The notes beneath the pieces were generated by a model that was given only the letters and a program-made list of their open reading frames with translations, ran no database searches and had not been told where the DNA came from. DNA of 64,000 nt from a virus. A program made the position numbers and the translations under genes. Of this stretch, positions 113 through 22,002 are shown one piece after another (the stretch's first letter is position 1; every line of letters begins with the position of its first letter). The stretch covers positions 119,759 to 183,758 of the IMG/VR virus record IMGVR_UViG_3300021962_000025; one strand, given 5' to 3'.

Positions 113-1030
113 ATGGCAATAGGAAGTTATGGTACTGTAAGACCTTCAGATGTTTCACCTTCAGACGTGGAAATCTTCTTTCACTATGTGACAGGGAGGA
201 CTTCTAACGCTCCGGTGCAGTTTAAAAAATTAGATTCGGAAGATATTTTGACACCCGTATATCATAATTCATTTACTACGAATGCTGCTTCGGCGGTAGA
301 TACTGAGATTTTAGGTGGTTTATACAACCTAAGGTTAGATTCGGACGATTTTGATGAGTTGGGGATTTACACTCTCCACATTAGACCTAAACAGATAAGA
401 ACCTCAATCACTGATTGTGGGATTTTAGCATCTCTATCATCTGTCAGAGGGATTATTATTGATTTAAGTAATGTCCCCTCGGATGACAGAAATAAATTTA
501 CACCCCAAGGATTGGTGGGATATAGAATAGAATATTTGAATAGTGATGGTAGTAAAATACCAAACTTTTACAGAATGGTTACGTCCTCATTCTACTGTAA
601 TCCAATCGCATCTAATTTAACTAGTACAACACAAAAAGCCATTAGATATCAGTACACGGATCAAGCAACTAATTTATTGTTTCTTACTGTGACCCCGTCA
701 TCGGCACCAACCAATAAACCAAACACAGTTCCTTTTATTGGTGAACCATCACAAAACATCATTTTAACTAATACCTTCTTCAATCCAACAACAATTGAAA
801 TTGAAATGGTTGAACATGATGACACCACATTGGCATACGCACTTTATGGTAATCAAAGTAAATCCGTCTCTGATGGTATTTACACAATTTACACTGCGGA
901 TAACAATATATACAAACAGTTTAACCTGTTTGAAATCAAAGATGAGTTCAACGAAACACTTTACGAAATACGTGAAGAAAGGGACGAAATTGATGATACT
1001 AAAAACTTTGATGATATCACTGAATTATAA
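113..1030 (+). CDS. hypothetical protein, probably structural (baseplate region), 305 aa
   Basis: Long ORF coupled (TAATG) to the wedge-like gene; no recognised catalytic motif. Confidence 0.6.
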
Positions 1031-4000
1031 TGGCGAAAAGAAAAGTTCCAAGTCAAGCGGCAAGTGGAAGGGAAACCTTTAACGACAACTTGATCGGTAA
1101 CCAAATTACCGATGGGTCTAGCCAATTTACTGCTACGAACTTTTCAGTTGAAAAAACCATTCCTCAGAGAGATAGTAAAACTTTTAAATCAGTACCATTT
1201 TCTGAGTTTCTTACCTTAGAAGATCTTGGGGAAGAAACTAAGGCACCGACAACATCATCACCAACCACCAGTAAAAAAGATAATAAAGTAAAGTTTAGGG
1301 ATTCTAAACAAGATGGTGGAAAATCACTTTATGGATCTCTTAAAGAGAGATTATCGGTATCCGTACAAAGAATTGTAAGGAAGTTCCCTGCGGGGTTCTA
1401 TGTTGATGGAGACACCCCTGTGGCATCCACCATCTACACCGCTGAAAACATTTCATACAATCAAAGAACTAACGTTACAACGTTTGAGTTTGAAAAGTCA
1501 AAAATATTCAATCCACTTGAGGTTGTTTTCACTAAACCTAAGAGTAATACTCAACCAACAGTTGACAACGAGTTTAAAAATTTCTTTTCAAACTATTCAA
1601 AATATGCTTTATCGTTAAATAATAAAACTTATAATGTTTTAAGTTTTACTGACGATACCTCCACAATTACTTTAGAGGTTAGTGGTAGACCATTTACCTC
1701 ATCAACATACAGTGAAAGTTTTTTAATAAGACCTGTTGATTCTATTGTCGAGGAATTTTTTACAAATCTAGATGATTTAGAGTCTGTTTTACTTAATAGG
1801 GAAACTAGTCCAATTTATACTGCTAGTTTTAAGGTACCACAGAATTCTTTAGATGGGTCTAGAACTGAATTAACCACTGTTAAACTTAAGTGGCCACTTT
1901 TTAAGGATGGGTGGAACATAAAGATAACAGGGTTAGAATACTCTAATTACCTCACCAGGCTTAAGGACATTGGGGAGGAAATAGATAACTATAAATCTAA
2001 TTTGGTTGTCAGGTTCCTAACAACCGCATCCCTTAACGAATTCGATACCGAAGACAAAAGGATGGGTTCGGTTTTACAACTGTACGGTACATCCTTTGAT
2101 CAGGTAAAAAAATTCATTGATAATGTGGCTTACATGAGAAATGTAAGTTATGATGGGATTAAAAACGTACCGGACATTTTATTAAAAAATCTATCTAACA
2201 CTTTAGGATTAGATTCGGTAAATCTATTTGATGAAAAATCATTAGAGGACACACTTTATAATAGAATAGAAAGTCAATATGGTGGTGTAGGTCTCGGTAT
2301 GAACATGGTTGAGGCCGAAACAGAATTCTATAGAAGATTAGTAATAAACTTAGTTCATATCTATAAATCTAAAGGAACTAGAAAGGCGTTAGAATTCTTT
2401 CTGAGATTTATAGGGGCACCCGAACCTTTAATTAAAATAAACGAACATGTTTATAGGTTTGATGATGTTAGAAAGGTGGATGAGGATATTGATTCGGATA
2501 TCTACGATTTAGTACAAGGAAATAAGACATTTAATGTTGCGGAACTATCCACAACAGGTTTCACATATTCAAACACAACAACCACAGGATCAACAATTTA
2601 CTCTGATTCTGAATATCCAATTGTACTTACGGGTGTTACAAAATATGGTGACGTAAAACCAATTGTAAGTGAGGATAATGATGTGTTTTTCCAAAAAGGT
2701 GCGGGTTGGTATGATATTACATTAGAACACAGATCTTCTTTAGAAATTGATACGGAAAGGTCTAATCTAACCAGTAACCCAAAAGTAATTAAGACGAAAA
2801 ATAAGGATTATACATATGGTGAGGAATACTTCACATTGTATAGACAATTTTATGGTTTAGATTATGGGTATGAATTACACAATACCGTCAATAACGAAAA
2901 GGCGGAATTATTGGGTGACACAGATAGTAAAACACTTAACAGAAAGAATATACAAATCTATCTTTCCTCTGCCCAAGCATTGGAGTATGATGTTTATAGA
3001 CAATCGAGAAAATTAAGGGTAACCTTTGGAACCAACACGATGAAACCTCAAACAGGTTTTACGTTTGCGGAATTTTTAGATCAAGTATTAAACGAACAAA
3101 TAAGGAATTCTCACACTGTTCGTTACCAAAAGTCCTATATCCAATTAGAAGATATATACACTAGTTACTTGGAGAAGGTTCCAAATCCTTATAGTAACCC
3201 AACGGTAAGTGAATTCATTAATAGAATGAGTCCATATTGGGTACAAGTAATTGAACAATTTGTGCCTGCAACTACACTATGGACCGGTGGTAACATTATT
3301 GAGAATCATAAGTTAGGGAGGTCAAAATATGAATACATTAAACCTTGCCAAACAAATGAGTTTGTACAAAATGTCTTCCCCGAATTTGAAACCGCAATTG
3401 AGGAGGATTTAGAAACACTGATTTTAGGTGATAAGGATGTCTTTAGAGGTCTTACCATTCTTAGTGGTGTGACATATACCCTTTTCATTGAGTTAGAGGG
3501 CGAGATCTACCAAGGTGACGACTCTATAGTTTTAAGTGGAGAAACTCAAAACGTAAACTCTTTAGCTTGTGAAAATATTATCCAATCACACACTCATGCG
3601 GGTTTATTTGAACCTTTTAATATCACATCCGAATGTACATCAATAAACGATGTAGAGTTTAACGGGGTTCCATTTGATAAAACAAAACACCTCCCATTAC
3701 TTTGTGATTTTAAATGTCATTTAGAACCACAGAGAGAGATATTAGATTGTTTATGGATTGAAGAATTAAAAGATATTATCGATAATCAAATCAATACCAA
3801 ATACTATAAAAGAACACTTTATAGTGGGGGTGAAACCATAAATAATCACGCGGGATGGGTGGACTATCAAGTAAGTGGTAACACAACCTTAGAAGGTAAT
3901 TACTTAGGTGAATTAACAACAAATTCGGAAATCTATGGGTATGAGATAGCACCTATTATCTCCTACGAGATTTTCACAGATACTGATGGTGTTAAAAAGA

Positions 4001-7000
4001 TAAGTGTTACCCCATTTAAGTACGATACACCACTATACATCCATACCCCAAACAGTAAAGATGAATATACACTTGTAGAAATTGAGTGTATCGACCCATC
4101 AACATTTGATTTTTATTGGGCTGCGGAATACCTAACAGGTAGTACGGAATGCAATCCTCAGGTTGAGGTTACGGGTACCGGAGAAATGTTCGTTTTACCT
4201 GAAGATACAGATCACTGTGTTTTAAGTTCGGACATTTACTTAGAGATTTCGGGAATTACATTCGGAAATGAGGATACTGTAGATAATGGTGATCCATGTG
4301 ACGATTGTCCCGCATTCAATACTGAGTGGCCCGTTAACATATTTTTAAATTGTGTTGGTGGATATAATGAATCAATCACTGGTTATACTGTTCAACACGT
4401 GTCGGGATGTACGTTTGTAATTAAAGACGTAAAAGAGACCGATGTTTTTGATGTGATCATCACTGACGGTGCGAACTGTGATCAAAAAATAAGGATAGAG
4501 GGTCTACAACAAAAATTAGAATGGGACCCAACAGGAAAAAGTCATTATTTTAACTATTCTGTCGATACATTCTTACCTAATGACATTTATACTCCAATAG
4601 AGAGTCAAAGTGGTATAACTTATTGTGATAACTACTTAGGATACACTCTACACCCAAAAGTACAATATAGACCAACGTTTGATTATGGTTTAAGACAAGG
4701 GAGTTATGTTTTAAAAATTGATAACAACTTCACAGAGGACTTTAATACGTTTACGTGGAGAGATATTAACGAACATCTCGGACATGGCCATATCAGTAGA
4801 GTAAAGATTGAAGATATCGTTATTGGTGATAAAGTATTATCCGCAACATATAAAGATTGTCCTTATAGTTCACAAGACTTCTTTAATTCTCCTATTGAAG
4901 GTTACGGATTCTCAATGGAATACCAAGTTCTCTTAGTTGAAAATAAAGATTGTTTAGGTTCCATAAAAGTTAATAGAATCAATGATAGGTTTAGTGTATT
5001 ACCCAATAGTAAACTCAGAGTTTTAACAAACGATTCAGGACGTTTTGAATTCACAGAAAAATATCCTGAACAACTAACTGTTAGACCTGAGGAGGACGTT
5101 ACGCCATGTTGTAGTCATGACGTGACTTATCATGAAAATGGTGACTACATGATCAATGAGTTCGGTTTCCCCGTGGAAGTCCTTTCATTGGATTTGGATT
5201 ATTGTGATAGGGACATATATTATCATTTAAACGTAAGTACTGTTGGTAAAATAGATCAGACAGGTTGTGGTAATGTTGTTATTTTCAACGGAGACATCAA
5301 TGACTCCGTCTTATTAGAACATATTGAACAGAAGTTTAATACTTTAGATTTAAAAACACAACAATACTTCCAAGACAATCTAGATTGTGAGGACATACCA
5401 AGTATTGATGAATTGGAAAGACCTGTTTATACAATTGATTGTGAAGAGGTTAATGCGTTTAAGGTTCAAAACTTTATTACGGGTGACATTAAATATGTTA
5501 CATACAATCCTGATTTCTCAGTTGGTGATTATGTCGAATTAAGATTATTACCCGATGGACAAAGAAATAGAATCCAATTTATTAATTTGGATTGTTATGT
5601 TATTGTGGATCTGGCGAGTTATGGTAACATTACTTTTGAGATAAGTAGATACTGTATCGGATCAACCAGACCACCTCAACCAACCCCAACACCATCATCT
5701 ACTCCTCATCCTACACTACCACCAACCCCAACACCTAGTCCATCACCTAGTGTGACTGCTAGCCCAACACCGAGTACAACAGCCAGTCCTACACCAAGTC
5801 CTAGTCCATCACCAAGTACAACTGCGGATCCTACACCAACTCCAAGCACAACTGCGGATCCTACTCCTACACCTAGTAGTTCACCGACACCTTCTGTGAC
5901 TCCAGATCCAACTGCGAGTCCGTCACCATCCCCTGCACCAACAAATACTCCAACCCCAGATCCAACATCTAGTTCAACTCCTGCACCTACAGGTACACCA
6001 ACACCTACCCCAACGGCGACAATTGATTGTAATTTCGATGCGGATTTTGACGAGTATTTTGAACCAACACCAACACCTACCTATACTCCTTCACCAACAC
6101 CGAGTACAACCGCTAGTCCTACTCCGTCTCCTTCACCGTCTCCTTCACCGTCTCCATCACCAAGCACAACCGCTAGTCCTACACCAAGTCCTAGCCCATC
6201 ACCAAGTACAACTGCGGATCCTACACCAACACCATCGCCATCGGTTACCGCTAATTGTGACTTTGGTGTGGATGTAGATATTGCCACCCCAACCCCAACT
6301 CCAAGTAATTCACCAACACCTTCTCCATCACCAAGTACAACTGCTAGTCCTACACCAACACCGAGTAGTACTCCGAACTGCGACTTCGGCGTAGATGTAG
6401 ATATTGCTACTCCAACACCAACACCTAGTCCATCGGCTACACCTAACTGCGACTTTGGTGTGGATGTAGATATTGCCACTCCGACACCAACACCATCTAA
6501 TAGTCCAACTCCAACACCTAGCCCATCGGTTACCGCTAATTGTGACTTTGGTGTAGATGTGGATATCGCAACACCTACTCCGAGTCCAAGCCAAACTAAT
6601 ACTCCAACACCAACACCATCACCAAGCCCATCACCTTCGGTAACTCCGAATTGTGATTTCGGTGTGGATGTGGATATTGCCACTCCGACACCAACACCAA
6701 GCAATTCACCTACACCTTCCGTAACTGCGAGTCCTACTCCATCACCATCTCCGAGTAGTTCTCCAACTCCATCACCTTCGGTAACTCCGAATTGTGACTT
6801 TGGTGTAGATGTAGATATTGCTACTCCGACACCTAGCCCAAGTCAAACTAATACTCCAACCCCATCACCATCACCATCACCAAGTACAACCGCTAGTCCT
6901 ACCCCAACCCCATCACCTTCGGTAACTCCGAATTGTGACTTTGGTATTATTGTAGACATCGCAACACCTACTCCTACACCATCTAATAGTCCAACACCAA

Positions 7001-9192
7001 GTACAACCGCTAGTCCTACTCCTACACCATCTAATAGTCCAACACCAAGTACAACCGCCAGTCCTACTCCAACACCTAGTAGTACACCTAACTGTGACTT
7101 CGGAATTATAGTGGATATTGCCACTCCAACCCCAAGCGCTACTAACACCCCAACCCCATCACCTAGCCCATCACCGTCATCAACTCAGGTACCAACAGAA
7201 ACGCCTCAACCAACGGCAACATTTACACCCACACCAACCCCATCACCTTCGGTAACTCCGAACTGTGACTTCGGAGTAGATGTGGATATTGCTACTCCAA
7301 CACCTACACCATCTAATAGCCCAACACCGAGTACAACCGCTAGTCCTACACCAAGTCCTAGCCCATCACCAAGTACAACCGCCAGTCCTACTCCAAGTCC
7401 TAGCCCATCACCAAGTCCTTCGGTAACTCCGAATTGTGATTTCGGTGTGATTGTAGATATCGCTACCCCAACACCTACACCTAGTAGTTCACCAACCCCA
7501 TCTCCATCACCAAGTACAACCGCTAGTCCTACACCAAGTCCAAGTCCGAGTCCTACCCCAAGTAGTACACCTAATTGTGATTTCGGTGTGATTGTAGATA
7601 TCGCAACACCTACCCCAACTCCAAGTAATTCACCTACACCTTCCGTGACTGCGAGTCCGACCCCATCACCGTCTCCATCACCAAGTCCTTCGGTAACTCC
7701 GAATTGTGATTTCGGTGTGATTGTAGATATCGCAACACCTACTCCTACACCATCTAATAGTCCTACACCAAGTCCTAGCCCATCTCCATCACCTAGCCCA
7801 TCTCCATCACCATCGGCTACACCTAATTGTGATTTCGGTGTGATTGTAGATATTGCTACTCCAACACCTACACCATCTAATAGTCCTACACCAAGTCCAA
7901 CCGCTAGTCCTACACCAAGTCCTAGCCCGTCGCCATCACCAAGTACAACCGCTAGTCCTACTCCAACACCGAGTAGCACCCCAAATTGTGATTTCGGAGT
8001 TATAGTGGATATCGCAACACCTACTCCTACACCATCTAATAGTCCAACACCATCACCTAGCCCATCGCCGTCTCCATCACCGAGCCCAACACCACCACCT
8101 ACCGCTAGTCCTACACCAAGTCCAACGGCTATTGATTGTCCACCTAACTGTGGCACCTCAATATACCAAAACATCTTTGTTAGTACAGGTACAACCGTTG
8201 CGGGTCTTGGAATCTATGAATTAGGTGGATGGTGTGCTGAAACACCGGGTGTGGATAGTCAGGGACAAGAGTGGTGGTACGATAGATACACATGTACTAT
8301 TTACACTCGAGAATATTCGGGAGGATCTAACACAACATGTATCGGTGAACAAGTAACACCTGTTGGTACTCAAGTTTCAAGTGTTACTCACTCAAACGGA
8401 ACACTAACCCCAACGGGATCTAACAAGTTGTATAACACAGGAATTAGATTCATTGATTCTAATAATAATGCGGTATTCATCGTAACCGAATGGCACTCAA
8501 CATTACTCGATTTGGTTTATGTCCATATTTTATGTGATTGTACGTTTGAGGCGATAGCTACAGAATACATTGAGGGTGAGATTGTAATTGATGAGAATAC
8601 TGAAATTAATATCTTCTTTGATTCATCAGGTTCAATGAATACAACGTTGTCACCCCTTCAAACAATGAGAAATACAATACTTAAAGATTGTTTGTTACCA
8701 TTCTATAATAATGATAGTACCAAATACGATGAAAATGTAACAATAATACAAAGTGGAACTGAAAGAACATTTAATTGGCTACAAACAACAGGTTCTACTA
8801 GTGGAACCACTAAGGTTATAAATTTAGTATTCACTGATGAGAATAGTCCTTACGATAATGGTTCGTTGATTTGGCAGACAAATAGAACGTCACAGTATGA
8901 CACTGATATGTCCGCATTAAGAAATGTATTGTCAACAACTCCTAACTCAGACTATTATAGAGGTGTAATATTTAGAGTTAATACGGGACCAAATAGTTAC
9001 GACTTCTTTAGACAGTTTTTAGTGGCGGTCATGAACGGTACATATCTATATAATGGAATAAATGGATTATCTGATAAGACAGAAATTGGTTTAGAGCAAA
9101 CTGTAATTGCGGGTTCAACGCCAACCTATTACGCTAATACTATAATAAATGCATTGAATAATTTGGGGTACAGTATCCCTAATTGTAACTAA
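1030..9192 (+). CDS. giant baseplate wedge-like protein (P2 gpI/T4 gp7-like N-terminal region) with Cys-rich middle, Pro/Thr/Ser repeat linker and C-terminal VWA domain, 2720 aa
   Basis: [10 protein letters not shown]...[29 protein letters not shown] resembles the gpI-type wedge motif; [11 protein letters not shown] is a VWA MIDAS DxSxS motif near the C-terminus. Confidence 0.65.
5671..8127 (+). repeat. in-frame Pro/Thr/Ser low-complexity array with 14 interspersed NCDFG(V/I)(D/I)VDIA motifs
   Basis: Counted in the translation; first motif at 6253, last at 7984; a diverged [12 protein letters not shown] lies just before them. Confidence 0.95.
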
Positions 9193-9234
9193 AAATGGAT
9201 ACATAAAACGAGATAAAAAGTATATATTTTAATA

Positions 9235-12200
9235 ATGGCTAGAATATTCGACATATTAATTACTTCAGGGACTTCACACAGTCTCTATACCATCTATTAC
9301 GACCAGGTAAATCCATCGAATATTGCCACAAGAGTTAGTACGTCATTACCTGCAACAGGGGTCACATACAGTGATTTAATTTTAAGTCCTGGTGTTAGGG
9401 TTGAAGTACCTGACACTGCGGTATCTGTTTTATTATATAATGAATCCTGTGTAATTGACGACACAATCCTTCTACCAACCCCAAGACCAACTGCAACACC
9501 ATCACCAACTCCTAATCCAACCCCAACACCAAGTAGTACACCTGCACCAACTCCAAGCCCATCACCTAGCCCATCACCTAGCCCATCACCGAGTCCAAGC
9601 CCGACACCATCACCTAGCCCATCACCGAGTCCAAGCCCGACACCAAGCCCAACACCTAATTGTGATTTCGGAGTTATAGTGGATATTGCCACTCCAACCC
9701 CGACTCCATCCCCAAGTCCAACACCATCACCTAGCCCATCACCCAGCCCATCACCATCACCATCCCCGAGTCCGACACCAACACCGAGTACAACCGCTAG
9801 TCCTACTCCTACACCGAGTACAACTGCCAGTCCTACTCCATCACCATCCCCTAGCCCAACACCAAGCCCAACACCTAATTGTGATTTTGGTGTAGATGTT
9901 ACTATTAATGAAAGGCCAGTTATTGAGAACACAATACTTACACAAACCGAGGGAACCGCGACAGGTAGTACTATTGGTACTCTAACCGCATTGGACCCAC
10001 AGGGAGGCCCATTAACATGGCAATTATATGATAATACGACTTATCCCGATAACACATCGTTCACATTATCGAGTAGTGGGGATTTAAAGAACGCTGTCGT
10101 ATTTGATTATGAAACAAAAAATCAATATACCATTAATGCTCAAGTTACCGATTCTGGAGGATTAACTGACGAAAACTCATACATCGTTTCCGTGGGTAAC
10201 TTAAACGAAACACCATACGGTTTAACATTATCAAACAACACAATTAATGAAAATTCTGTCACAGGTACCACTATTGGTACATTCATAGGTTTAGACCATG
10301 ATGCTGGCGAAACGTTTACATACGCATTCACAGGTACAGGAAATGACAACTCATCGTTTACATTAACATCGGTATCTCAAACTGCGGCGGTTCTTAAAAG
10401 TGGTGTAGTCTTTAACTATGAAGTAAAGAATTCATATACAATACAAGTAACCGTAACAGATAGTGGAAATAATACATACACCGATACATTTACTATTAAC
10501 GTTAATAACGTAAACGAGGCACCAACCTCGATAAGTTTAAGTTCAAATACTTTAGCGGAAAACAGTGCTTCGGGAACCACTATTGGTACTTTTAGTGCGG
10601 GTGATCCTGACGCGGGATCGACATTTACTTACACATTAGTAACGGGAACGGGTGATACAGATAATGATTCTTTCTCTTTAACCGCTGCGGGTGTACTTAA
10701 ATCTAAATTCATCCCCGATTATGAAACAAAAAATTCTTACTCGATAAGAGTTAGGGTTACCGATCAAGGTGGATTAACTAGAGACGGTGTTTTCACAATT
10801 TCTATAACTAACGTTAATGAAGGTCCTTATGGTCTAACATTAGATAGTAATACGATAAATGAAAATAGTTCAACAGGAACAACAATTGGAACATTTACAG
10901 GATTAGATTATGACAATCCTGAAACCTTAACATACACATTGATAGATGGTGGAGAGGGTTCCGATGAAACTCATTTTACCTTGACAACTGCGGGTGTATT
11001 GAAAAATGCCTCAGTGTTTAATCATGAAGTTAAAAGTTCATACGTCATTACTGTTAGGGTTACCGATTTAGGTGGGTTATTCCATGAGAATGATTTTACC
11101 ATAACTGTCTTAGATGTAAACGAAGCCCCGACAGCAATAGCATTAAGTAATAATAGTGTTGCGGAAAATTCTGCCACAGGAACTACGGTGGGAACATTCT
11201 CAACAACAGACGTTGATGATGGAGATACATTCACCTATAGTTTGGTGACGGGAACGGGAGATAGTGGAAATGGTAATTTCTACATTGATGGTAATAGATT
11301 AAAAACAAATGCGGTATTCGATAGGGAATCAACATCCTCTTACTCTATTAGGGTAAGAACAACAGATAGTGGTAACTTAACGTTTACAACGACATTTACT
11401 ATTAATGTTACTAACGTAAACGAAGCCCCATCAAACATTCAACCATCTTCAATAGGTTTTAATGAAAACAACTCTATTGGTGATACAGTAACGACGTTTA
11501 GTGTTACTGATCCTGATGTTGGTGACACCCACACATGGTTATTAGTGGCGGGTCTTGGGGACACAAATAACGATTCTTTCTCATTATCAACATCGGGAGT
11601 TCTTACCGCAGAGGAATCCTTCAACAAGGAGGTAAAAGATTCTTACTCAATTAGAGTACAAGCAACAGATGCGGGTGGACTAACAACGGTTAGGGTAATA
11701 CCAATTACAATTAACAACGTAAATGAGACACCAACTGATATTTCATTAAGTAATAGTAGTGTTGCTGAAAATAGTTCGACAGGAACAACTGTAGGTACGT
11801 TCAGTACCACAGACCCCGACGCATCTAACACTTTTACCTATACTTTAGTCACAGGAACTAGTTCTACAAATAACGCTAGTTTCTATATTGATGGGTCTAC
11901 ACTAAAAACAAACGAAGTATTTGACAGGGAAACAAAATCGTCTTATACAATTAGAGTAAGATCCACAGACCAAGGAGGTTTATATCGTGAAGAAGCGTAT
12001 ACAATTACAATTAACAACGTAAATGAGACACCAACCAACATAGGTTTAAGTAGTAGTTCTGTCTCTGAAAATGTTGCCACAGGAACCACTGTTGGAACAT
12101 TCACCACTACAGATGTTGATTCGGGAGATACTTTCACATATATATTAGTTGATGGTGTAAGTTCTGAAGATAACGGTAGTTTCTATATCAGTGGATCTTC

Positions 12201-15200
12201 GTTAAAAACAAACGAGGTGTTCAATTACGAAACTAAGTCGACATATAAAGTAAGGGTTAGAACAACGGATGCAGGTGGGTTATGGTTTGAAAAGGCATTA
12301 ACCATATCAGTGACAAACGTAAATGAGTCACCTACGGCGATTAGCCCAACTTCAGTCTCCTTTGCGGAAAATCAAGCAACGGGAACCACCGTTACCACGT
12401 TTAGTGTTACCGACCCCGATGCTTCTAACACTCACACATGGTCTCTTGTGGATGGTGTTGGTAGTGATGATAATGGTTCATTTGAATTAAGTGCGTCGGG
12501 TACATTAACATCTAAAGAAGTCTTTAATTTCGAGGTTAAAACATCATATAGGATAAGAGTGATGGTCACAGACCAAGGTGGTTTAACATTTGATAGACAA
12601 ATTAATATTAATATTACTAATGTTAATGAGACCCCTACCGACATAACATTATCGAGTAACAGTGTTGCGGAAAACAGTTCGACAGGGACAACTGTGGGTA
12701 CGTTCAGTACCACCGATCCCGATGCTTTAAATACGTTTACCTATACTTTGGTTACGGGGACTAGTTCTACAGACAACGCTAGTTTCTATATCAGTGGTTC
12801 TTCCTTAAAAACAAATGCAGTATTTAACTACGAGGTTAAAAATTCATACACAATTAGAGTAAGATCTACGGATCAGGGATCACTATGGGTTGAAGAACCA
12901 TTTACGATCAATATTACTAACGTAAATGAAACACCGACTAACATATCATTATCGAACTCATCCATAGATGAGAATTTACCTATTGGGTCAGTTGTTGGTA
13001 ACCTATCAACGACAGACCCCGACTCTTCTAATACATTCACTTACAGTTTAGTAACGGGTGTTGGGGATACGAACAATGATAGTTTTACTATCGTTGGGAA
13101 TCAAATAAAAAGTGCTCAAGTCTTCGACTATGAGACCAAATCGTCCTATAGTGTTAGGGTAAGATCGACCGATCAGGGTGGATTATGGTTTGAAAAAATT
13201 ATTACAATAACAATAACCAACATAACGATAAGTGGTACGTTGGAAATTGTAGATGCCGCATGTAATGGAGGTAAAGGTTCTATCACAGTTAGTACTCAGG
13301 AAGGTGGGGATTCCCCTTATCAGTACTCTAAAGATGGAACTAATTACCAAACATCAACTGTGTTTAGTGCCCTATCCGCGGGAACTTACACAATTTACAT
13401 TAAAGACTCAAACAATGAGGTAGGAACAGTATCAGGTACTATTAGTCAACCAACTGCAGTATCTGTTTCAGTTTCTTCATCGGCAAATCCAACATGTAAT
13501 GGTAGTACTGATGGTTCTATTACAGTAACATCTTCAGGTGGTACAGGTACTAAAACATATTCTAAAGATGGAACAAACTTCCAGTCATCGGGAACATTTA
13601 CAGGTTTAACAATCGGCACATACACAATTACTGCAAAAGACGCCAATGGATGTACGGGGACAGTAAGTAGAACTCTCTCTAGAACTGTCATTACTACCAC
13701 ATTAACTAAAGTTGATGTTACATGTAATGGTGCTGGCGATGGTAAGATAACTGTCGCACAACCTACGGGCGGTACAGGGAGCGGATACCAAGTTAAATTA
13801 GGTTTAGGGGGAACGTATGAAGAAGTAACCTTCCCATATCAATATACAAACTTAAGTAACGGAACATACCACATATATGTAAAAGATGATAATGGTTGCG
13901 AATACATGTTCACAACAGTAATCACTCAACCAAATGTTCTAGACGTTACTCAAAGTTCAAAAACTTATCCAACATGTCACAATAGTACAAACGGTTCAAT
14001 AACAGTAACTGGTAGTGGGGGAACAACTCCATACCAATACTCTAAGGATGGAACTAACTATCAAACATCTCCAACATTTAGTACATTATCACAAGGTTCT
14101 TATATAATAAGAATAAAAGATGCCAATAATTGTACGGATTCTGTAACTATTGATATTAGTAGAAACCCTGTTGCGGCAACTATATCACAAACAAATGCCC
14201 CATGTAACGGTCAAAGAGGATCTTTAACCGCATCATCACCTTCAGGCGGTACTGGTAGCGGATATGAAGTAAAATTAGACACCGGAGAATACCAATTATT
14301 CCCAATCGGTGGAAGTGTTGAGTTTAATGATTTATCGGTTGGTGCTCATAGTATAACAGTTAAAGATGATAATGGGTGTGAGACTGTTTATAACAGAACA
14401 ATCACACAACCCGCAGTACTATCTGCATCGACATCGTCTGAAAATAGTCCAACATGTGATGGTGGTAGTGACGGTTCAATTACATGGACAAGAACTGGAG
14501 GTACATCACCGTACACTTATACAGTGAATGGTAGTGCGATAACTAATTTGTCTCAAACAGGTTTAAGTGAAGGGACATATAATTTTATTGTAACTGATGC
14601 GAATGGGTGTACTGCATCAAAATCAGTGACATTATCTAAATCGGCCGTAACGGCAAGTATAAGTCAAACCAATATTACATGTAATGGTGGGTCAAACGGT
14701 AGTATCAGTCTTACTGCAATTTCAGGTGGAAATGGAGCAACCTATCAATACCAATGGCAGGGAGGGGCATGGACTGATTTCGCATTAGAGACGGTTACCT
14801 TTAATAATTTAGGTACCGGTACATATACTTTAAAAGTTAGAGATAGATCACAATGTACCGTCACTTACACTAGAACAATCACACAACCAACGGCGGTTGT
14901 TGCCTCGGCAAGTGTATCACACCCGACATGTTACAATGGTAGTGATGGTTCAGTAACATTAACGGCCACGGGAGGTACGGGAAGTAAGACGTTCTCGATC
15001 AATGGAACAAATTATTATACTTCGGGTACGTTTACTTCATTAGGAGTTGGAACCTATACAGGTTATGCTAAAGATAGTAATGGGTGTGTGGATACGGTTG
15101 GGTTTACGTTAACTAAATCAGCACCATCGGCAACCGTAAGTGTTAGTAATGCCCCATGTAATGGTCAAAGGGGAAGTATAACCGTTTCTAACCCAACAGG

Positions 15201-16917
15201 TGGTAACGGAGGAGGGACCTCACAAAACTATTCAGTTAAATTAGACGCTATTGGGACTTATGAGGCATTCCAAAGTACATCTAAAGTGTACAGTGATGTT
15301 GGTGTGGGGGCCCACACAATTTATCTTAAAGATCAAGACGGGTGTGAAAGAACCTATGATGTCACAGTTGGACAACCTTCAGCATTAACGGCATCAACAT
15401 CGTCTGAAATTAGCCCAACATGTGATGGTGGAAGCGATGGATCAATCACGTTTACTAGATCGGGAGGTACATCACCATACACATACACATTAAATGGTGT
15501 TGCGACAACTAGTTTATCACACACATCATTGGGTGAGGGGGTATACAATTTTGTTGTAACTGATGCGAATGGATGTACCGCAACCAAGTCTGTTACTTTA
15601 TCTAAATCGGCAGTAACGGCCTCAACTTCACAAACTAATGTCACATGTAATGGTGGATCTAACGGTAGTATCAGTCTTACTGCAATTTCAGGTGGAAATG
15701 GAGCAACCTACCAATACCAATGGCAGGGAGGGGCATGGATTGATTTCGTAGAGATAGTGAGTTTTTCTTCACTTTCAGCGGGTAGTTACAGTTTAAATGT
15801 TAGAGATAGATCACAATGTACGACCAGTTATACTAAGACGATTACACAACCGACGGCAGTTACGTTTTCCACATCAAACTCAGCCCCAACATGTTGGGAT
15901 GGGTCGGATGGTAGTATAACCGTATCCGCAAGTGGTGGAAGTGGATCTTACCAATATTCTAAAAACGGCGGAACAACATGGCAGACAAGTAATACCTTCA
16001 GTTCTCTATCAACAGGAACGTATAGTATTAGGGTTAAAGACGGGTCTGGATGTTCAACAACAAACGGTAGTGTTACTTTAAGTAGATCAGCCCCTTCAGC
16101 GACTATATCAGGAACTAATGTTTCGTGTAATGGAGGTTCTGATGGAACTATTTCTGTCTCTAACCCAACAGGAGGTAGTGGAGGTGCGGCACAGAGTTAC
16201 TATGTAAAACTAGGAACTGGTGCGTGGATCCAATTTACTAGTACCTCGTATCTCTATAGTAGTTTAAGTAGTGGAACATATACCATTTCTATAAAAGATT
16301 CTAGCTCTTGTGAAAAATCTTACTCCATAACTGTAACACAACCAACCGCACTGACCGCATCGATTCCCACAATTACTGCAGGGACTAACGGTTCTGTCAC
16401 AGTAACATCTTCAGGTGGTACATGGAATAAAACATATAGATTATATAGAGATTCTACATCACCTTATACAGTTGGTGGGGGTTCCTTAGTCGCAACTATA
16501 AGTAACGTGACCTCGGCCAATCCGTCACAAGTGTTTAACAATTTGGCGGAAGGGTACTACTATGCAATAGTAACCGATGCGAATGGATGTACGGCATCTA
16601 CTACGATTAAGTCAACATTTAGTGGAGGTGAAACCGGAAATGGACCAACAACTGCCGATATGCAGATTACTACATGTAATAATGAGAATCTTACATACTT
16701 TGTTAATAGTTTGATGATTTGTAATGGTGGGGAATATTCACTCCCACTTACATCCTTTAAATTAGGTGATGTGGTTCAATTTGCTGAGAGTGTAAACTGT
16801 CCACATGGAGCAACCTATTGTGGTACAATAACCGCAGTAGGACTAACTGAAACACCTGACGCTATCATAACATTAGACACAACATTGGCTTGTAATAGCC
16901 CACAGTGTTTTGAATAA
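9235..16917 (+). CDS. giant virion adhesin-like protein: N-terminal beta domain, PT linker, 11 cadherin repeats, 14 SprB repeats, Cys-rich C-terminal module, 2560 aa
   Basis: Cadherin motifs NE.P / EN / DPD / FDYE / TD.GG; SprB motifs TC.G..DG.I....GG..PY...L..G.Y...VKD.NGC. Confidence 0.85.
9904..13224 (+). repeat. 11 tandem cadherin-like domains (~100 aa each)
   Basis: Eleven units begin NE(R/T/A/G/S)P, with Ca-binding EN, DxD and DxE/NxE motifs. Confidence 0.9.
13225..16620 (+). repeat. 14 tandem SprB-type repeats (~75-90 aa each)
   Basis: Recurring C..G..G.I...GG...Y and D.NGC motifs; units alternately end TQP and TLS(R/K). Confidence 0.85.
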
Positions 16918-16974
16918 AATAAATTACAAGTCTTAAAAGAATAATATGATTTGTAACATTTCTTAAAAAGAAGA

Positions 16975-16982
16975 TATTTATA
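16975..16982 (+). promoter_or_regulatory. putative late promoter element TATTTATA
   Basis: Intergenic, upstream of ATG 17009. Confidence 0.55.
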
Positions 16983-17008
16983 ATAAAGATTTAAAAAAAA
17001 AGAAAAAC

Positions 17009-17638
17009 ATGGCATATCAAGTAACACTTTCTATGAATCCCGCATTTACGGGTACAACAGAGGCGGATAATTTTACCATAATTGGTAAACACTGCGATGG
17101 ATCTCCATCCGACACAATAATCGCAACCAATGTCACAAAGGCCCAATTAATTGCTGGTGTTACATATCAGGTGGCGGACACAGTAACGGGAGGTACCGTA
17201 ACTTCTACAGGAACATGTACAAACTCAGTCTTATGGACTGGATTAAGTAATTGTCAACCAGGTGAGGGTGTAGGCCCACAGGAACCTGTCGCGACACCGG
17301 TGCCAACAGCAACATCGGCAGAGACACTATACGATTATTATATCACAACGTTTAGAGTTGGTGACGCACAAACCATAGCGGCCGAATTCTGTGAAACTCC
17401 ATTTAGTGCTACTACATTAATTAAGAGTCCGGCTTCAAGCATTACAAGTATCATAAATCAACCTATTTATGACGCTGCGGGAGATCCATACGTAGTCGCC
17501 GCAGGAAGATGGGCATACATTACCAAAGTACAAGGTAGAAATAGTAATAACACTATTGAAGCACCTAGATATATGATTGAATCTAGTTTAGGTGTAGTCG
17601 ATAACCTCGCAACAGTATGTGACGGGGCACAGGTATAA
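17009..17638 (+). CDS. accessory virion protein, 209 aa; short paralog of 18262..20106
   Basis: C-terminal domain ETLYDYYITTFRV...NQPIYD...VVAAGR aligns with the C-terminus of 18262..20106. Confidence 0.7.
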   Translation: MAYQVTLSMNPAFTGTTEADNFTIIGKHCDGSPSDTIIATNVTKAQLIAGVTYQVADTVTGGTVTSTGTCTNSVLWTGLSNCQPGEGVGPQEPVATPVPTATSAETLYDYYITTFRVGDAQTIAAEFCETPFSATTLIKSPASSITSIINQPIYDAAGDPYVVAAGRWAYITKVQGRNSNNTIEAPRYMIESSLGVVDNLATVCDGAQV

Positions 17639-17666
17639 CCATTAATTAATTAAATATTAAACAAAG

Positions 17667-17690
17667 AAACCCTCTTTTGAGGGTTTTTTT
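17667..17690 (+). terminator. intrinsic terminator
   Basis: AAACCCTC-TTTT-GAGGGTTT stem followed by a T run. Confidence 0.85.
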
Positions 17691-17712
17691 ATTCCCCATT
17701 TTAATTAGAAAG

Positions 17713-17720
17713 TATTTATA
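17713..17720 (+). promoter_or_regulatory. putative late promoter element TATTTATA
   Basis: Between a terminator and ATG 17737. Confidence 0.55.
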
Positions 17721-17736
17721 TTAATATACTATCATA

Positions 17737-18207
17737 ATGGGTGTACTTATAACGATAAATAACGAATACGATAATGGGGTGTGTTCAAATCACACCATTT
17801 TAACAGGAACAACATATAACATTGATAATGCAACATCAATGGGTGTTCACACATTACCGTATACGTGGGATGCGGGATTGTTTACAGGAAATTTATTTGT
17901 CTTTATTGAACATTGTGATTCCCATATTGATCCACCACCTTCACTATTACCGAGAAACCAAGGCGGATTTCAAGTACAACTACTAACCATTGATTGTGAG
18001 CAATGTCCACCAATCGCCACACCAGAACCCCAAGACTGTAATTTACAAATTACGGTTGTAGAAATGTTTGAACCATCTACTGACTGTAATTTAACTGCAT
18101 CGTTTACGGAGTTTTTTGAATCAACAACCGATTGTGATTTAACGGTAGATTTTACGGAATTTTTTGAAGTGGATTGTTCGATGGAAATTACTGTAGAAGA
18201 GTTATGA
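17737..18207 (+). CDS. Cys-rich accessory protein with four C-terminal DCx(L/M)xxx(F/V)xE repeats, 156 aa
   Basis: DCNLQITVVEMF, DCNLTASFTEFF, DCDLTVDFTEFF, DCSMEITVEEL. Confidence 0.7.
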   Translation: MGVLITINNEYDNGVCSNHTILTGTTYNIDNATSMGVHTLPYTWDAGLFTGNLFVFIEHCDSHIDPPPSLLPRNQGGFQVQLLTIDCEQCPPIATPEPQDCNLQITVVEMFEPSTDCNLTASFTEFFESTTDCDLTVDFTEFFEVDCSMEITVEEL

Positions 18208-18234
18208 TTATGAAAACAAAAGATAAAAACATAA

Positions 18235-18242
18235 TATTTATA
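18235..18242 (+). promoter_or_regulatory. putative late promoter element TATTTATA
   Basis: Intergenic, upstream of ATG 18262. Confidence 0.55.
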
Positions 18243-18261
18243 TAAATAAAATAAAAACACA

Positions 18262-20106
18262 ATGGCAAGACATTTCACAATTACGTTAACTTCGGGCACT
18301 AATTCAGGACCCTATAGTGTGTATCACTCATCCATATCGGCAGCAAATAGAGCTCTTATATACAATACAACCGATTTTGCGATTAATTTAACCCTGACTC
18401 AGGTACAAAATGGAATATTAGTTACAGTACCGGATAATGCGACTAGTGTCATTCTCTATAACCAAGATCCTTTAGTACAAAGTGATTGTCCGACAAATTT
18501 TATTGAATATCCCTTAGGTGCGGGACCAACGTCAACACCATTACCAACGGGAACTCCAGGTGCGACACCACAACCAACACCACAACCAACACCAAACCCA
18601 ACAGCAACACCAAACCCAACGGCAACATCAATTGTTGTGACTGAAACACCACAACCAACACCAAACCCAACAGCAACACCAAACCCAACGGCAACGGAGT
18701 TAACTAGATATTATTATTACGCACAATGTGCGTCGGGTTGTAGTGACCTACCTTCCTCAGAACAATTAAGTGCGGCACCTATTGGATCCGGTACTCCTAT
18801 TGTGGTATCAAGTACTGTTCCGAGAATAATTGGTAGCTATGTCACATTGAATATTAACCCAGGTTGTTGGCAGATTACTGATACTGCTACAGCACCTGAA
18901 GAAGATAGCGTTGTATCAACATGTTCGCCACCTAACCCAACCGCAACACCAACACCAACAGTTGATTCAAGTGTTTTGTGTGTTGATGTAGAATTTACTG
19001 CTAAGGCAGCGACCGCTGGTGGTACTGTTACATATATTGATTGTAACAACATTCAACGTACACTGACGATCCCTGGTGGTGATAGCGTTGTAGCACCTCA
19101 TTGTGTACAAAATAATTCATGGGTATTCAATCCCGCACAAAACTTCGAACCTACAACCCTATTAATAGGTGATTGTTCAAGTACTACACCAACACCAACC
19201 TCAACACCAACACCAACGGCAACAACTCAGCCAACCGCTAATTATCATACGTTCACGTATTGTGGAGGTCATGAGTTTGAAGATCCGGCAGCAGGTTTAT
19301 TGGTGATAGTTACAACTGCACAGTTAACCACTGCAGGTATGTCGACCTCATCTCCTGTGGCGAATGATACCATAACATTAAGTGGAAGTGGTAATATAGG
19401 TGCCATATATGATTATGTAAGTAGTAGTTCAAGTGGTTCGGCATCACCTGTCACAGTAACTTCATACAATCTTGACCCATGTCCTGGAACAGGAACGGCA
19501 ACACCGGCACCAACGTCAACGGCGGTGGTATCTACTGAGTGTTACGAGTTCTCATGGACTGATAATGGATCTGTAGGGGACCCTGATGGATCAATCGTAT
19601 ATGTGGATTGTAATGGTAGCTCACAAAGTTTCTCATTCATAGCGGGTTCATACGGAACGATATGTGCTAGATCTATAACCGCCACATCCTCAAGAGTGGA
19701 TTACACTAACGATGGAACTGCGGGATGTTTACCAACCGCAACGCCGGCACCAACATCGGCACCAACCGCAACTCCAAATGAAACACTTTACAATTATTAT
19801 ATCACAACGTTTAGAGTAACCGCAGATCCTGATACTGAATTCTGTGATAACGCATATATAACAGGTACATTAGTTAAGAGTCCATCATCGACAATACCGT
19901 TGATGTTAAATCAACCTATTTACGATTCTTTAGGAAACCCATTAGTGGTAGCCGCAGGAAGATACGCATATATAAGTAAGTCTAACGGAAAATCAAGTAG
20001 TGATTCCGCAAATGACCCAAGATATGTGATTGAGACTAGTAATGGTCAGGTAATCGATGTCGCACAGCTTGTCTGTGGTGGCGGAGGAGGAACCGGACAA
20101 CTATAA
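18262..20106 (+). CDS. modular Cys-rich accessory virion protein with PT linkers, 614 aa
   Basis: N-terminus MARHFTITLTSGT...VPDNATSVILYN is homologous to that of 9235..16917; several small Cys-rich modules separated by PT runs; 50-bp perfect direct repeat at 18577-18626 and 18646-18695. Confidence 0.75.
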   Translation: MARHFTITLTSGTNSGPYSVYHSSISAANRALIYNTTDFAINLTLTQVQNGILVTVPDNATSVILYNQDPLVQSDCPTNFIEYPLGAGPTSTPLPTGTPGATPQPTPQPTPNPTATPNPTATSIVVTETPQPTPNPTATPNPTATELTRYYYYAQCASGCSDLPSSEQLSAAPIGSGTPIVVSSTVPRIIGSYVTLNINPGCWQITDTATAPEEDSVVSTCSPPNPTATPTPTVDSSVLCVDVEFTAKAATAGGTVTYIDCNNIQRTLTIPGGDSVVAPHCVQNNSWVFNPAQNFEPTTLLIGDCSSTTPTPTSTPTPTATTQPTANYHTFTYCGGHEFEDPAAGLLVIVTTAQLTTAGMSTSSPVANDTITLSGSGNIGAIYDYVSSSSSGSASPVTVTSYNLDPCPGTGTATPAPTSTAVVSTECYEFSWTDNGSVGDPDGSIVYVDCNGSSQSFSFIAGSYGTICARSITATSSRVDYTNDGTAGCLPTATPAPTSAPTATPNETLYNYYITTFRVTADPDTEFCDNAYITGTLVKSPSSTIPLMLNQPIYDSLGNPLVVAAGRYAYISKSNGKSSSDSANDPRYVIETSNGQVIDVAQLVCGGGGGTGQL

Positions 20107-20117
20107 TAACCATTTAT

Positions 20118-20145
20118 AAAAAACCCTCGAAAGAGGGTTTTTTTT
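20118..20145 (+). terminator. intrinsic terminator, possibly bidirectional
   Basis: AAAAAACCCTC-GAAA-GAGGGTTTTTTTT; same stem as 17667. Confidence 0.9.
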
Positions 20146-20148
20146 ATC

Positions 20149-20595
20149 ATGATAGACATAATTAAAAAAATACAATTCTTAATTGGTGACAATTTTATTG
20201 TTGTTGGTTCTGTTTCTATGAGGTATCACGGTATAGAACCCAATTCAAGAAAAAAAAACGAAATAGATATTGTCGTCAATGATAATTTATATTTTGAAAA
20301 ACTAAGTTGTTTAGGTGAGTTCACCATAAACGTTAACGGAGAAAGAACCCCATTTAATGAAGAAAAACGAATGTTTATCAGGACCACCGAAGGTAGTTTT
20401 ATCGATGTTTACTTTGACACCAACCGAATAGAGTTTCACGAAATAGATGTAGAGGGAACTAAAATTAAGGTTAGATCAAAATCAAGTTACTTAGATTTCT
20501 ACAATTCAATACTTAAAAACTATGATTTCATTAAATACGATACAGGGGGACTTTTTAAGGAGAAAATATTGAAATACATTAACCTTTTATCTTAA
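20149..20595 (+). CDS. putative nucleotidyltransferase-fold protein, 148 aa
   Basis: FIVVGS...HG...EIDIVV resembles the GS plus [DE]xD Pol-beta-type NTase motif. Confidence 0.45.
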   Translation: MIDIIKKIQFLIGDNFIVVGSVSMRYHGIEPNSRKKNEIDIVVNDNLYFEKLSCLGEFTINVNGERTPFNEEKRMFIRTTEGSFIDVYFDTNRIEFHEIDVEGTKIKVRSKSSYLDFYNSILKNYDFIKYDTGGLFKEKILKYINLLS

Positions 20596-20624
20596 TTGTT
20601 TCATATATAAAGTTTATTCGGAAG

Positions 20625-20632
20625 TATTTATA
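20625..20632 (+). promoter_or_regulatory. putative late promoter element TATTTATA
   Basis: Intergenic, upstream of ATG 20639. Confidence 0.55.
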
Positions 20633-20638
20633 TGAAGT

Positions 20639-21223
20639 ATGGGATTACTTATTCGTATATATGATATAAAGTCGGAAAATGATTTCGATTTAAGTGTGGG
20701 GTTCTCACCTTATGGACCTTTCACATCATTACCGAACCCAAATAGGGTTGACGGGTCGTGGCCATCATCTAATTTAAGAAATTACTACACCGAACCAATT
20801 TATATTGGGGACAACGACCCCATGGTACTAAATGGAAAACCATCGATCACGGATATTGTTGAATATGATTTAGAGTTTGACACCCAATATTGGTTAAAAA
20901 TAGAGGATAAAATAAATGTCATTGATTTATGTGGGGGTAATAACACACCTAGGTTTATAGTAGAAAACATTTATATACACGACTCTAAAGCGTTTGAATG
21001 CTATGATAGAGTCGCCTTTGATGTTGTCTACGATCCTGATACGTGTCCTACACCCACACCATACCCATCATCCACACCATACCCAACATCTATTGTTGAT
21101 TGTGATATAAACGCAAATTTTGTGGAGTTCTTTGGAACGGATTGTGATATAGATGCAAATTTTGATGAGTTTTTTGACGTATTAGATTGCCAATTTGAAG
21201 CAACATTTAGAGAGAACACATGA
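20639..21223 (+). CDS. accessory protein with short PT linker and three C-terminal DCx(I/F)xAxFxE repeats, 194 aa
   Basis: DCDINANFVEFF, DCDIDANFDEFF, DCQFEATFRE. Confidence 0.7.
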   Translation: MGLLIRIYDIKSENDFDLSVGFSPYGPFTSLPNPNRVDGSWPSSNLRNYYTEPIYIGDNDPMVLNGKPSITDIVEYDLEFDTQYWLKIEDKINVIDLCGGNNTPRFIVENIYIHDSKAFECYDRVAFDVVYDPDTCPTPTPYPSSTPYPTSIVDCDINANFVEFFGTDCDIDANFDEFFDVLDCQFEATFRENT

Positions 21224-22002
21224 GTAAGTTAATAAGAATAAATCTAGGTGTCGACCCTGATCACAATTTAGCGGATTTTCCCGTTAATATATATACGGGT
21301 ACAACTACAGGAGATACAACAAATTGGGGTTTTACAGAAACCCCCGTTATAACATTTCCTATGGTTATTACCACACCTTTTGAGTTTTGGGTTGACGACG
21401 AACTACTCTCTTTTGGTATAAGGTTAGAAAGCGGTGGATGTAATAATGTTGATCTTTTGGTTAACGCGCCACGAGTTGATTGTGAAATGTGTATGAATGT
21501 AGTACCATACAATGCACCCCAACCGACATCAACTCCCCAACCAACACAACAACCCACAGCAACACCAATCCCATCATCAACACCTAATTCTACCAATTCA
21601 CCAACATCAACACCTAATTCTACCAATTCACCAACATCAACACCCAATGCGACTCCTAACCCAACACCCAATGCGACTCCTAACCCAACACCCAATGCGA
21701 CGCCTAACCCAACGGTTGGTACGTCATCTTATTATCGAATACAGACTTGTAATAATGCATTAGATATACATGTGCCAAAGAATGTTTATTGTGCTGGTGG
21801 ATCACTCTCGACATTGACAAACTCGTTTAGTATCGGTGAAACCGTACAATTAATATTTGCTAATGGGGGATGTGGGTCGGCAACTTATTGTGGTATCATA
21901 GTCGATGAAAATTTCCAAGCACCCTTAAATTCAGAAAATGGTTATATTTCTAGAATCGTTCCAGTGGGGGGATGTGAAGATGACTCACATTGTGTTCAAT
22001 AA
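21220..22002 (+). CDS. accessory protein with PT linker and a Cys-rich C-terminal module shared with 9235..16917, 260 aa
   Basis: TCNN...C.GG...SF..G..VQ...C..ATYCG.I occurs at both C-termini. Confidence 0.7.
   Translation: MSKLIRINLGVDPDHNLADFPVNIYTGTTTGDTTNWGFTETPVITFPMVITTPFEFWVDDELLSFGIRLESGGCNNVDLLVNAPRVDCEMCMNVVPYNAPQPTSTPQPTQQPTATPIPSSTPNSTNSPTSTPNSTNSPTSTPNATPNPTPNATPNPTPNATPNPTVGTSSYYRIQTCNNALDIHVPKNVYCAGGSLSTLTNSFSIGETVQLIFANGGCGSATYCGIIVDENFQAPLNSENGYISRIVPVGGCEDDSHCVQ
21575..21709 (+). repeat. near-perfect in-frame tandem repeats (30 bp x2; 24 bp x3)
   Basis: CATCAACACCTAATTCTACCAATTCACCAA x2; CAACACCCAATGCGACTCCTAACC x3 with one mismatch in the third copy. Confidence 0.9.

Follow-up and report, generated by a model that had tools for sequence, protein, structure and literature searches.

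A cysteine-led strand resembling the closing edge of Ig-like modules is repeated along a giant phage protein and shared by other genes of the same genome

The window analysed here comprises the final 64 kb (64,000 nucleotides, positions 119,759 to 183,758) of the 183.8-kb IMG/VR virus record IMGVR_UViG_3300021962_000025, which at an estimated completeness of 59 % therefore belongs to a jumbo phage. It encodes a giant protein of 2720 amino acids (aa), here called the scaffold, in which short strands with a single cysteine alternate with linkers rich in Pro and Thr (PT linkers). Related strands are found in several other proteins of the genome, the version is specific to each genome, and its sequence points to the closing edge strand of immunoglobulin (Ig)-like modules as the source. 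We read the strand, tentatively and with somewhat less than even confidence, as a like-with-like, self-complementary beta-strand sticker in a stalk of stickers and spacers.

The scaffold gene (1030..9192, plus strand) is part of a baseplate/fibre gene cluster. Its product consists of a Cys-containing body of ~1540 aa, the PT/motif array, a Cys-rich C-domain and an end that resembles a von Willebrand factor type A (vWA) module. The array (5671..8133, plus strand; aa 1548-2368) is 821 aa long, of which 71 % are Pro, Thr or Ser, and holds 47 acidic residues (D/E), 15 Cys and not a single Lys or Arg. Its 14 short-form (type-A) copies, NCDFG[VI][DI]VDIA, of 33 nucleotides (nt) each, lie in 6253..8016 on the plus strand and start at nt 6253, 6376, 6445, 6538, 6649, 6790, 6931, 7090, 7261, 7432, 7573, 7702, 7825 and 7984, so that the motif starts span aa 1742-2319 (nt 6253-7984); the linkers between copies measure 12-46 aa. 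A long-form (type-B) copy of 14 aa precedes them at aa 1666 (6025..6066, plus strand), and its counterpart in the related genome L009 reads DCDIDGDFEEYFEP. The translation with its codon table and a regular-expression scan thus agree with an earlier note on this DNA, which had counted 14 copies and one longer one. Two further strands, a motif-like one of 11 aa at aa 1521 and one of 14 aa at aa 2503, close or open folded modules of the same protein.

The repetition is far above chance: the back-translated DNA pattern matched the 183.8-kb record 16 times in forward orientation, never in reverse and never in a reversed-pattern control. Among the 14 window copies, synonymous variation occurs at every motif codon, while 9 of the 11 residues are invariant. 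In a Nei-Gojobori-type count, the proportion of synonymous differences (pS) was 0.72 and that of nonsynonymous differences (pN) 0.057. Five relatives gave pN/pS ratios of 0.09-0.15, and the six genomes overall 0.08-0.15 with a pS of 0.6-0.8. The motif peptide is under strong purifying selection and its synonymous sites are saturated; the copies are therefore old, and it is the peptide and not the DNA that is held constant. This codon analysis ruled out recent tandem duplication as the origin of the copies, and also a DNA recombination signal, as the peptide is conserved and the DNA is not.

Relatives were collected by one DNA pattern scan and three protein-based scans, which located the cluster in many uncultured viral contigs. 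We found 11 scaffold orthologues (L009-L014, L020, L032, L039, L040 and L042) with 154 orphan copies, by which we mean strands that stand without the remainder of a module. All close relatives that we found retain the motif, and the refuting condition set by the earlier note, a motif variable or absent in such genomes, thus failed to refute its idea. Across 117 copies from seven scaffolds, the residues C2, D3 and F4 never change, I, V, L or T occupies positions 6, 8 and 10 throughout, and positions 5, 7 and 9 are mostly Asp. The strand is therefore strictly amphipathic, with one hydrophobic face (C, F, I/V, V, I/V/L) and another consisting mostly of Asp. Whatever its mechanism, selection has maintained this peptide in over 150 copies, and its versions change together across the genes of one genome.

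In all these proteins, a copy always either has PT linkers on both sides, marks the junction of a linker and a domain, or sits at the C-terminus. The 2560-aa adhesin (9235..16917, plus strand) is composed of a small N-domain, a PT linker, an orphan copy, another PT linker, a second copy, 11 cadherin repeats and 11 SprB repeats (Pfam Cadherin 8e-97, SprB 2e-70). Its two copies, also listed in the earlier note, were found at aa 142 (nt 9658-9690) and aa 215 (nt 9877-9909), the second joined directly to the first cadherin repeat. The adhesin has no signal peptide, and its second copy together with the following NERPV resembles the terminal part of a cadherin repeat and the adjoining Ca-binding linker.

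Two small proteins end in four and three tandem copies of a related unit, D-C-x-h-x-h-x-F/V-x-E (h, hydrophobic; type-B), just as the note had described. The first, of 156 aa (17737..18207, plus strand), has a conserved N-domain of ~90 aa followed by four type-B copies (18034-18204) that run to the C-terminus. The second, of 194 aa (20639..21223, plus strand), has an N-domain of ~135 aa, a PT linker and three C-terminal type-B copies (21098-21220). The 16 members of the 156-aa protein family carry 2-6 copies, in tandem or split by PT linkers, with the final copy always C-terminal, and two members that are 99 % identical across their common residues differ by one copy. In the N-domain of this family (17737-18030), C16, H59, C60, C87 and C90 are invariant in all 16 members (C-x-x-C plus H-C), a pattern that could form a zinc site or two disulfides.

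One further type-A copy, NCGFDVDVTIA, lies outside the window, 48 kb upstream, between two PT linkers of a 743-aa protein (genome 70598..72829). Based on a GDSGS motif and a weak NAL1_N match, this protein is putatively protease-like. It is adjoined by an 871-aa protein (genome 67976-70591) with a PT(E/N/A) tract of ~370 aa and no orphan copy. The single-Cys amphipathic strand common to the scaffold and its neighbours, in or near PT linkers, is a real and selected feature.

The earlier note did not recognise the motif from any described family. A comparison with Bacteroidota surface adhesins points to a different result: by sequence, the motif is the Cys-led closing strand of HYR (PF02494) and SprB-type (PF13573) Ig-like modules. 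In a Saprospiraceae protein of the T9SS (type IX secretion system), Pfam HYR domains end in NCDFEIDVDID and NCDFEVTVTT. SprB repeats, those of bacteria as well as those of the phage adhesin, finish with a Cys strand in matching register, for example DNCEISYTVEIED and, in the phage adhesin, a strand of 12 aa. In all of them the closing strand starts with a conserved Cys and the hydrophobic residues alternate.

The accessory proteins of the cluster fit into this picture, as their N-domains end in a Cys strand directly before the PT linker (ENC[LS]FDV[VT]YSV in distant relatives). The 614-aa accessory protein (18262..20106, plus strand) has an N-domain that aligns with that of the adhesin at 36-40 % identity and ends in the Cys strand DCPTNFIEYPLG; it has no orphan copy. 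The N-domain of the 260-aa accessory protein (21220..22002, plus strand) closes with DCEMCMNVVPY (21478-21510), again followed by a PT linker; its orthologues carry DCEICVDFQEII, and the one in L018 adds three orphan type-A copies. Conversely, modules that follow a PT linker often start with the motif, as seen for the first cadherin repeat, the Cys-rich C-domain (L020, P0022) and a vWA-like module (L039). This likeness to the closing strands of HYR, SprB and the accessory N-domains argues that the orphan copies are Ig-like edge strands that were multiplied on their own, with neither the remaining domain nor the partner Cys.

The likeness is confined to the strand. In a true HYR domain (L026, aa 280-355, covering profile positions 2-81 of 81) only the final 8-11 residues resemble the motif, and in contrast to HYR and SprB the phage strand stands alone between PT linkers, lacking the other ~70 module residues. 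With HYR taken as a module of ~80 aa above the Pfam gathering score and SprB as a 37-aa repeat profile, HYR did not match the 2720-aa protein or the small proteins. SprB matched 11 stretches toward the C-terminal part of the adhesin (best aa 2131-2167), and neither the orphan copies at adhesin aa 142 and 215 nor any copy in the other proteins. Our literature searches retrieved no direct account of such a motif in phage fibres or in SprB structures. The finding ties phage fibre proteins to Ig-like adhesin modules of the likely Bacteroidota hosts.

Each genome uses its own version of the type-A strand: NCDFGV[DI]VDIA in the window, NCDFDIDVDVV in L010-14, NCDFDVDIDIA in L020/L032, NCEFDV[IV]VDNIT in L039, DCLFDVDVEVIT in L040 and DCNFDVEVIVVT in L042. 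The orphan copies of the accessory genes use the same version as the scaffold of their own genome, and in a cross-genome matrix they were nearest to their own scaffold by pN in five of seven genomes. At synonymous sites, accessory and scaffold copies differ from each other to the same saturated degree as scaffold copies among themselves. Recent gene conversion between adhesin and scaffold copies was rejected, as no tract was found and the flanks are at background identity. Two readings fit: either the copies co-evolved through mutual contact or a common partner, or an ancient exchange was followed by the same constraint. Judged by these sequences, the matching is what a shared pairing code would be expected to give. 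A strand swap, in which orphan copies would match the strand that closes the accessory N-domains in their own genome, was rejected because the sequences differ.

How might such a strand work? On the giant baseplate/fibre-cluster protein it sits between polyanionic Pro/Thr/Ser spacers, and neighbouring accessory proteins display the same strand. We favour a role as a sticker because an isolated amphipathic strand cannot stay buried alone. Copies may pair by beta-sheet augmentation, with Mg and Ca of seawater shielding the Asp face, and a disulfide through the single Cys could secure the contact once the virion exits the reducing cytoplasm. Such pairing would knot the stalk of ~820 residues at intervals and tie scaffold chains together, along with the proteins that have the same strand, namely the adhesin, the two small proteins and the protease-like protein. 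The latter speaks for pairing between chains, as its only orphan copy lacks an evident partner within that chain. Should the strand indeed serve as a pairing tag, it would illustrate how a single tiny element lets large phages assemble, and rapidly re-wire, multi-protein gear for receptor search, and it would offer protein engineering an 11-residue, version-specific assembly tag.

Several points weigh against the sticker reading. Without intervening cations, self-association is opposed by the many Asp on one face and by a net charge near -47, and a parallel in-register sheet has poor geometry for Cys-Cys bonds. Distant relatives retain the domains and PT linkers without orphan copies and the 871-aa PT-rich protein likewise lacks them; the strand is therefore no general need of such linkers. 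Old exchange within a genome, together with the same purifying selection, could yield common versions without co-evolution of partners. AlphaFold2 (AF2) monomer models were of low confidence: the 156-aa protein, modelled from a 16-sequence alignment, had a mean predicted local distance difference test score (pLDDT) of 50, with the motif tail below 50 and no usable fold, and the L014 array with its flanking domains (707 aa, 7 sequences; the shortest complete array) reached a mean pLDDT of 43. Pairing, docking and disulfides, like the cation shielding and the presence of most of these proteins in the virion, are what we infer.

The docking idea of the earlier note, which had compared the protein to a cellulosome scaffoldin, survives as one form of this sticker reading. 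In a bolder version, which we regard as unlikely, the strand would be a minimal, genome-specific address code of the like-with-like type and the smallest known equivalent of a cohesin-dockerin pair. Proteins with the right version would be zipped onto the scaffold, seawater cations and oxygen would lock the assembly after lysis, and a branched, self-assembling mesh of adhesins and enzymes would form at the baseplate, with its valency set by copy number. The cellulosome comparison holds for the architecture: a long protein with many repeated units split by PT linkers, a related unit on other proteins and an enzyme-like protein with a single copy. It does not extend to the parts themselves, as neither cohesin nor dockerin was found and, at E 0.01, neither the scaffold nor the small proteins matched any Pfam family. 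Moreover, the phage unit has 11-14 residues compared to ~150 in scaffoldins, scaffold and cargo carry the same unit instead of complementary ones, and binding in the phage is again something we infer.

Pairing within one chain accounts for most of the same data, and we consider it possible though rather unlikely. Here, the strands would stack into one beta-sheet or sandwich core, perhaps with edge strands of the flanking domains, and the PT tracts would form loops around a compact acidic body with a mucin-like surface, without any docking. The linker geometry is suggestive in this regard. Of 140 PT linkers, 131 are of even length and 19 have 12 aa, the minimum in nearly all lineages, with a single shorter one (8 aa); roughly 12 aa would be required for the chain to return along an 11-residue strand and stack in parallel. 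Linker length was followed in the window (6253-8016), L009-L014, L020, L032 and L040. It increases in seven relatives toward the C-terminal side of the array (rho 0.90-0.96), starting at 12-18 aa on the N-terminal side and reaching 50-66 aa, as if the spans grew. Young N-terminal units do not explain this rise, because the unit-to-unit DNA identity from Tandem Repeats Finder (TRF) is ~70-80 % throughout the array. No other observation argues as strongly for order within a single chain as this gradient, but the window shows it weakly (rho 0.54, p 0.055) and L040 not at all.

Single-chain pairing would also agree with the folded modules on either side of PT linkers, which likewise end or begin with a Cys strand. 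The AF2 model of the L014 array draws strands within the array only at motif copies, namely the last four of eleven; its confidence is too low to count, and it was not used as evidence. Two further points argue against pairing within the chain: the single orphan of the protease-like protein has no evident partner in the same chain, and the matching of versions across genes is not required.

Alternatively, the strand could be a tag for a separate catcher, completing an incomplete Ig-like domain of a phage protein or of a host HYR/SprB-type adhesin by donor-strand complementation, so that the array would act as a multivalent strand mimic for assembly or adsorption. The near identity of the motif to the closing strand of bacterial HYR domains and SprB-type repeats is in agreement with this idea, and the phage adhesin is itself built of host-like cadherin and SprB repeats. 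A co-evolving catcher would also account for the genome-specific versions. Nevertheless, we judge a catcher to be decidedly improbable. No domain without its closing strand was identified, and stable Ig-like folds seldom admit a strand from elsewhere. The sequences of the accessory N-domains retain a Cys strand ahead of the PT linker, and it is unlike the orphan version of the same genome; the AF2 model of the 156-aa protein gave too little confidence to tell whether its fold is complete. Chaperone-usher and type V pili, with their donor-strand complementation, and tag/catcher pairs of split Ig-like domains resemble the phage case in that an unpaired edge strand of Ig type could fill in or lengthen a second sheet and so join proteins by a tiny element. 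Unlike these systems, the phage cluster has no acceptor domain found lacking a strand, no usher, no chaperone and no Lys/Asp isopeptide pair.

That the copies have no function of their own, being remnants of decayed Ig-like modules or DNA landmarks that promote module shuffling between PT-linked genes, is highly improbable and largely refuted: module transfer between genes at motif borders is clear and copy number changes rapidly, as in the 99 %-identical proteins that differ by one copy, but decay remnants would not hold C2, D3 and F4 invariant in 117 copies, and a recombination landmark predicts the opposite of a low pN/pS (0.08-0.15) at saturated synonymous sites.

The closest functional analogue that we found is the amyloid-forming strand of Candida Als5, where the segment SNGIVIVATTRTV at the junction of Ig-like and Thr-rich regions drives like-with-like clustering of the adhesin (PMC9306254). 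Both are short strands, beta-aggregating in Als5 and putatively so in the phage, that border an Ig-like module and a Thr-rich, low-complexity stalk. However, Als5 has one critical segment with neither Cys nor an acidic face, whereas the phage chain has at least 15 copies with an invariant C-D-F. Functional amyloids and cross-beta adhesin segments are defined by fibrils together with cross-beta diffraction or dye binding; for the phage motif, it is the alternating hydrophobic pattern that the sequence shows. Long Pro/Thr/Ser stalks with small spaced elements bearing Cys or Tyr, candidate cross-linkers in the phage array, also occur in the PTS tracts of mucins with their CysD domains and in plant extensins with their cross-link motifs. 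CysD domains are folded, comprise ~100 aa and contain many Cys, unlike the phage strand.

The C-terminal part of the scaffold gives a hint on the arrangement of two of the proteins. Its Cys-rich C-domain (DCPPNC...HILCDC; 8134..8589, plus strand) has a type-B copy as its last strand (8536-8577; the 14-aa strand at aa 2503). The adjoining C-terminal module (8578..9189, plus strand) contains a D-x-S-G-S motif, here D-S-S-G-S, and is putatively vWA-like; it had no Pfam match even at E 5 and no convincing match among solved structures. In the window, this module is fused to the scaffold at the type-B strand (8536-9189) and the product of 20639..21223 ends in its three type-B copies. In L010-L014, the scaffold ends right after the last type-B strand, and the orthologue of 20639..21223 carries the vWA-like module instead of the copies. 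As the module can be fused to either protein, joined at a type-B strand, its position suggests that both proteins sit together in the particle. In these five relatives, the region concerned is 10001-11140, and a 248-kb relative has the module on both proteins. The Cys-rich C-domain is a mobile module as well and recurs in the small proteins P0022-P0030, whose N-domains vary and which may or may not have PT linkers and orphan copies.

Profile searches of all cluster proteins against Pfam, PHROGs and NCBIfam retrieved nothing for the motif or the scaffold except a sub-threshold match to TIGR02242 (E 0.039), and for the scaffold body a PDB sequence search and an ESM Atlas search gave nothing usable. 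Lipoboxes, N- or O-glycosylation sequons, intein-like N/C junctions and thioester or isopeptide motifs were considered as well; no matching feature was found and these candidates were dropped. Among the four motif genes compared, only the adhesin matches a PHROG named virion structural protein. Upstream of the scaffold gene lie genes for tail sheath, tube, a gp25-like and a gp6-like wedge protein, then five genes without assignment; the label 'wedge-like' that the note had given to the 2720-aa protein reflects gene position alone.

Using tblastn, neither the scaffold nor a conserved 763-aa neighbour matched any of 50,697 phage records, and no cultured isolate was matched. The closest match in genome collections was the 248-kb contig CBFHJJ010000001.1 (L018/L020), which has the same gene cluster and was binned as a Flavobacteriaceae metagenome-assembled genome (MAG). 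It is probably a binned jumbo phage or prophage and thereby gives a hint on the host. Its scaffold has 14 copies, in addition to the three orphan copies in the orthologue of 21220..22002. Because the same cluster lies on a contig binned as Flavobacteriaceae, the host is likely a marine member of the Bacteroidota; the cadherin and SprB repeats of the adhesin are noted alongside.

The DNA of the PT/motif array has a local GC (guanine plus cytosine) content of 0.49 and a GC skew of -0.42, due to its ACN and CCN codons. Minus-strand open reading frames (ORFs) of 207, 101 and 322 aa within window 6081-8174 are artefacts of these codon repeats and not genes.

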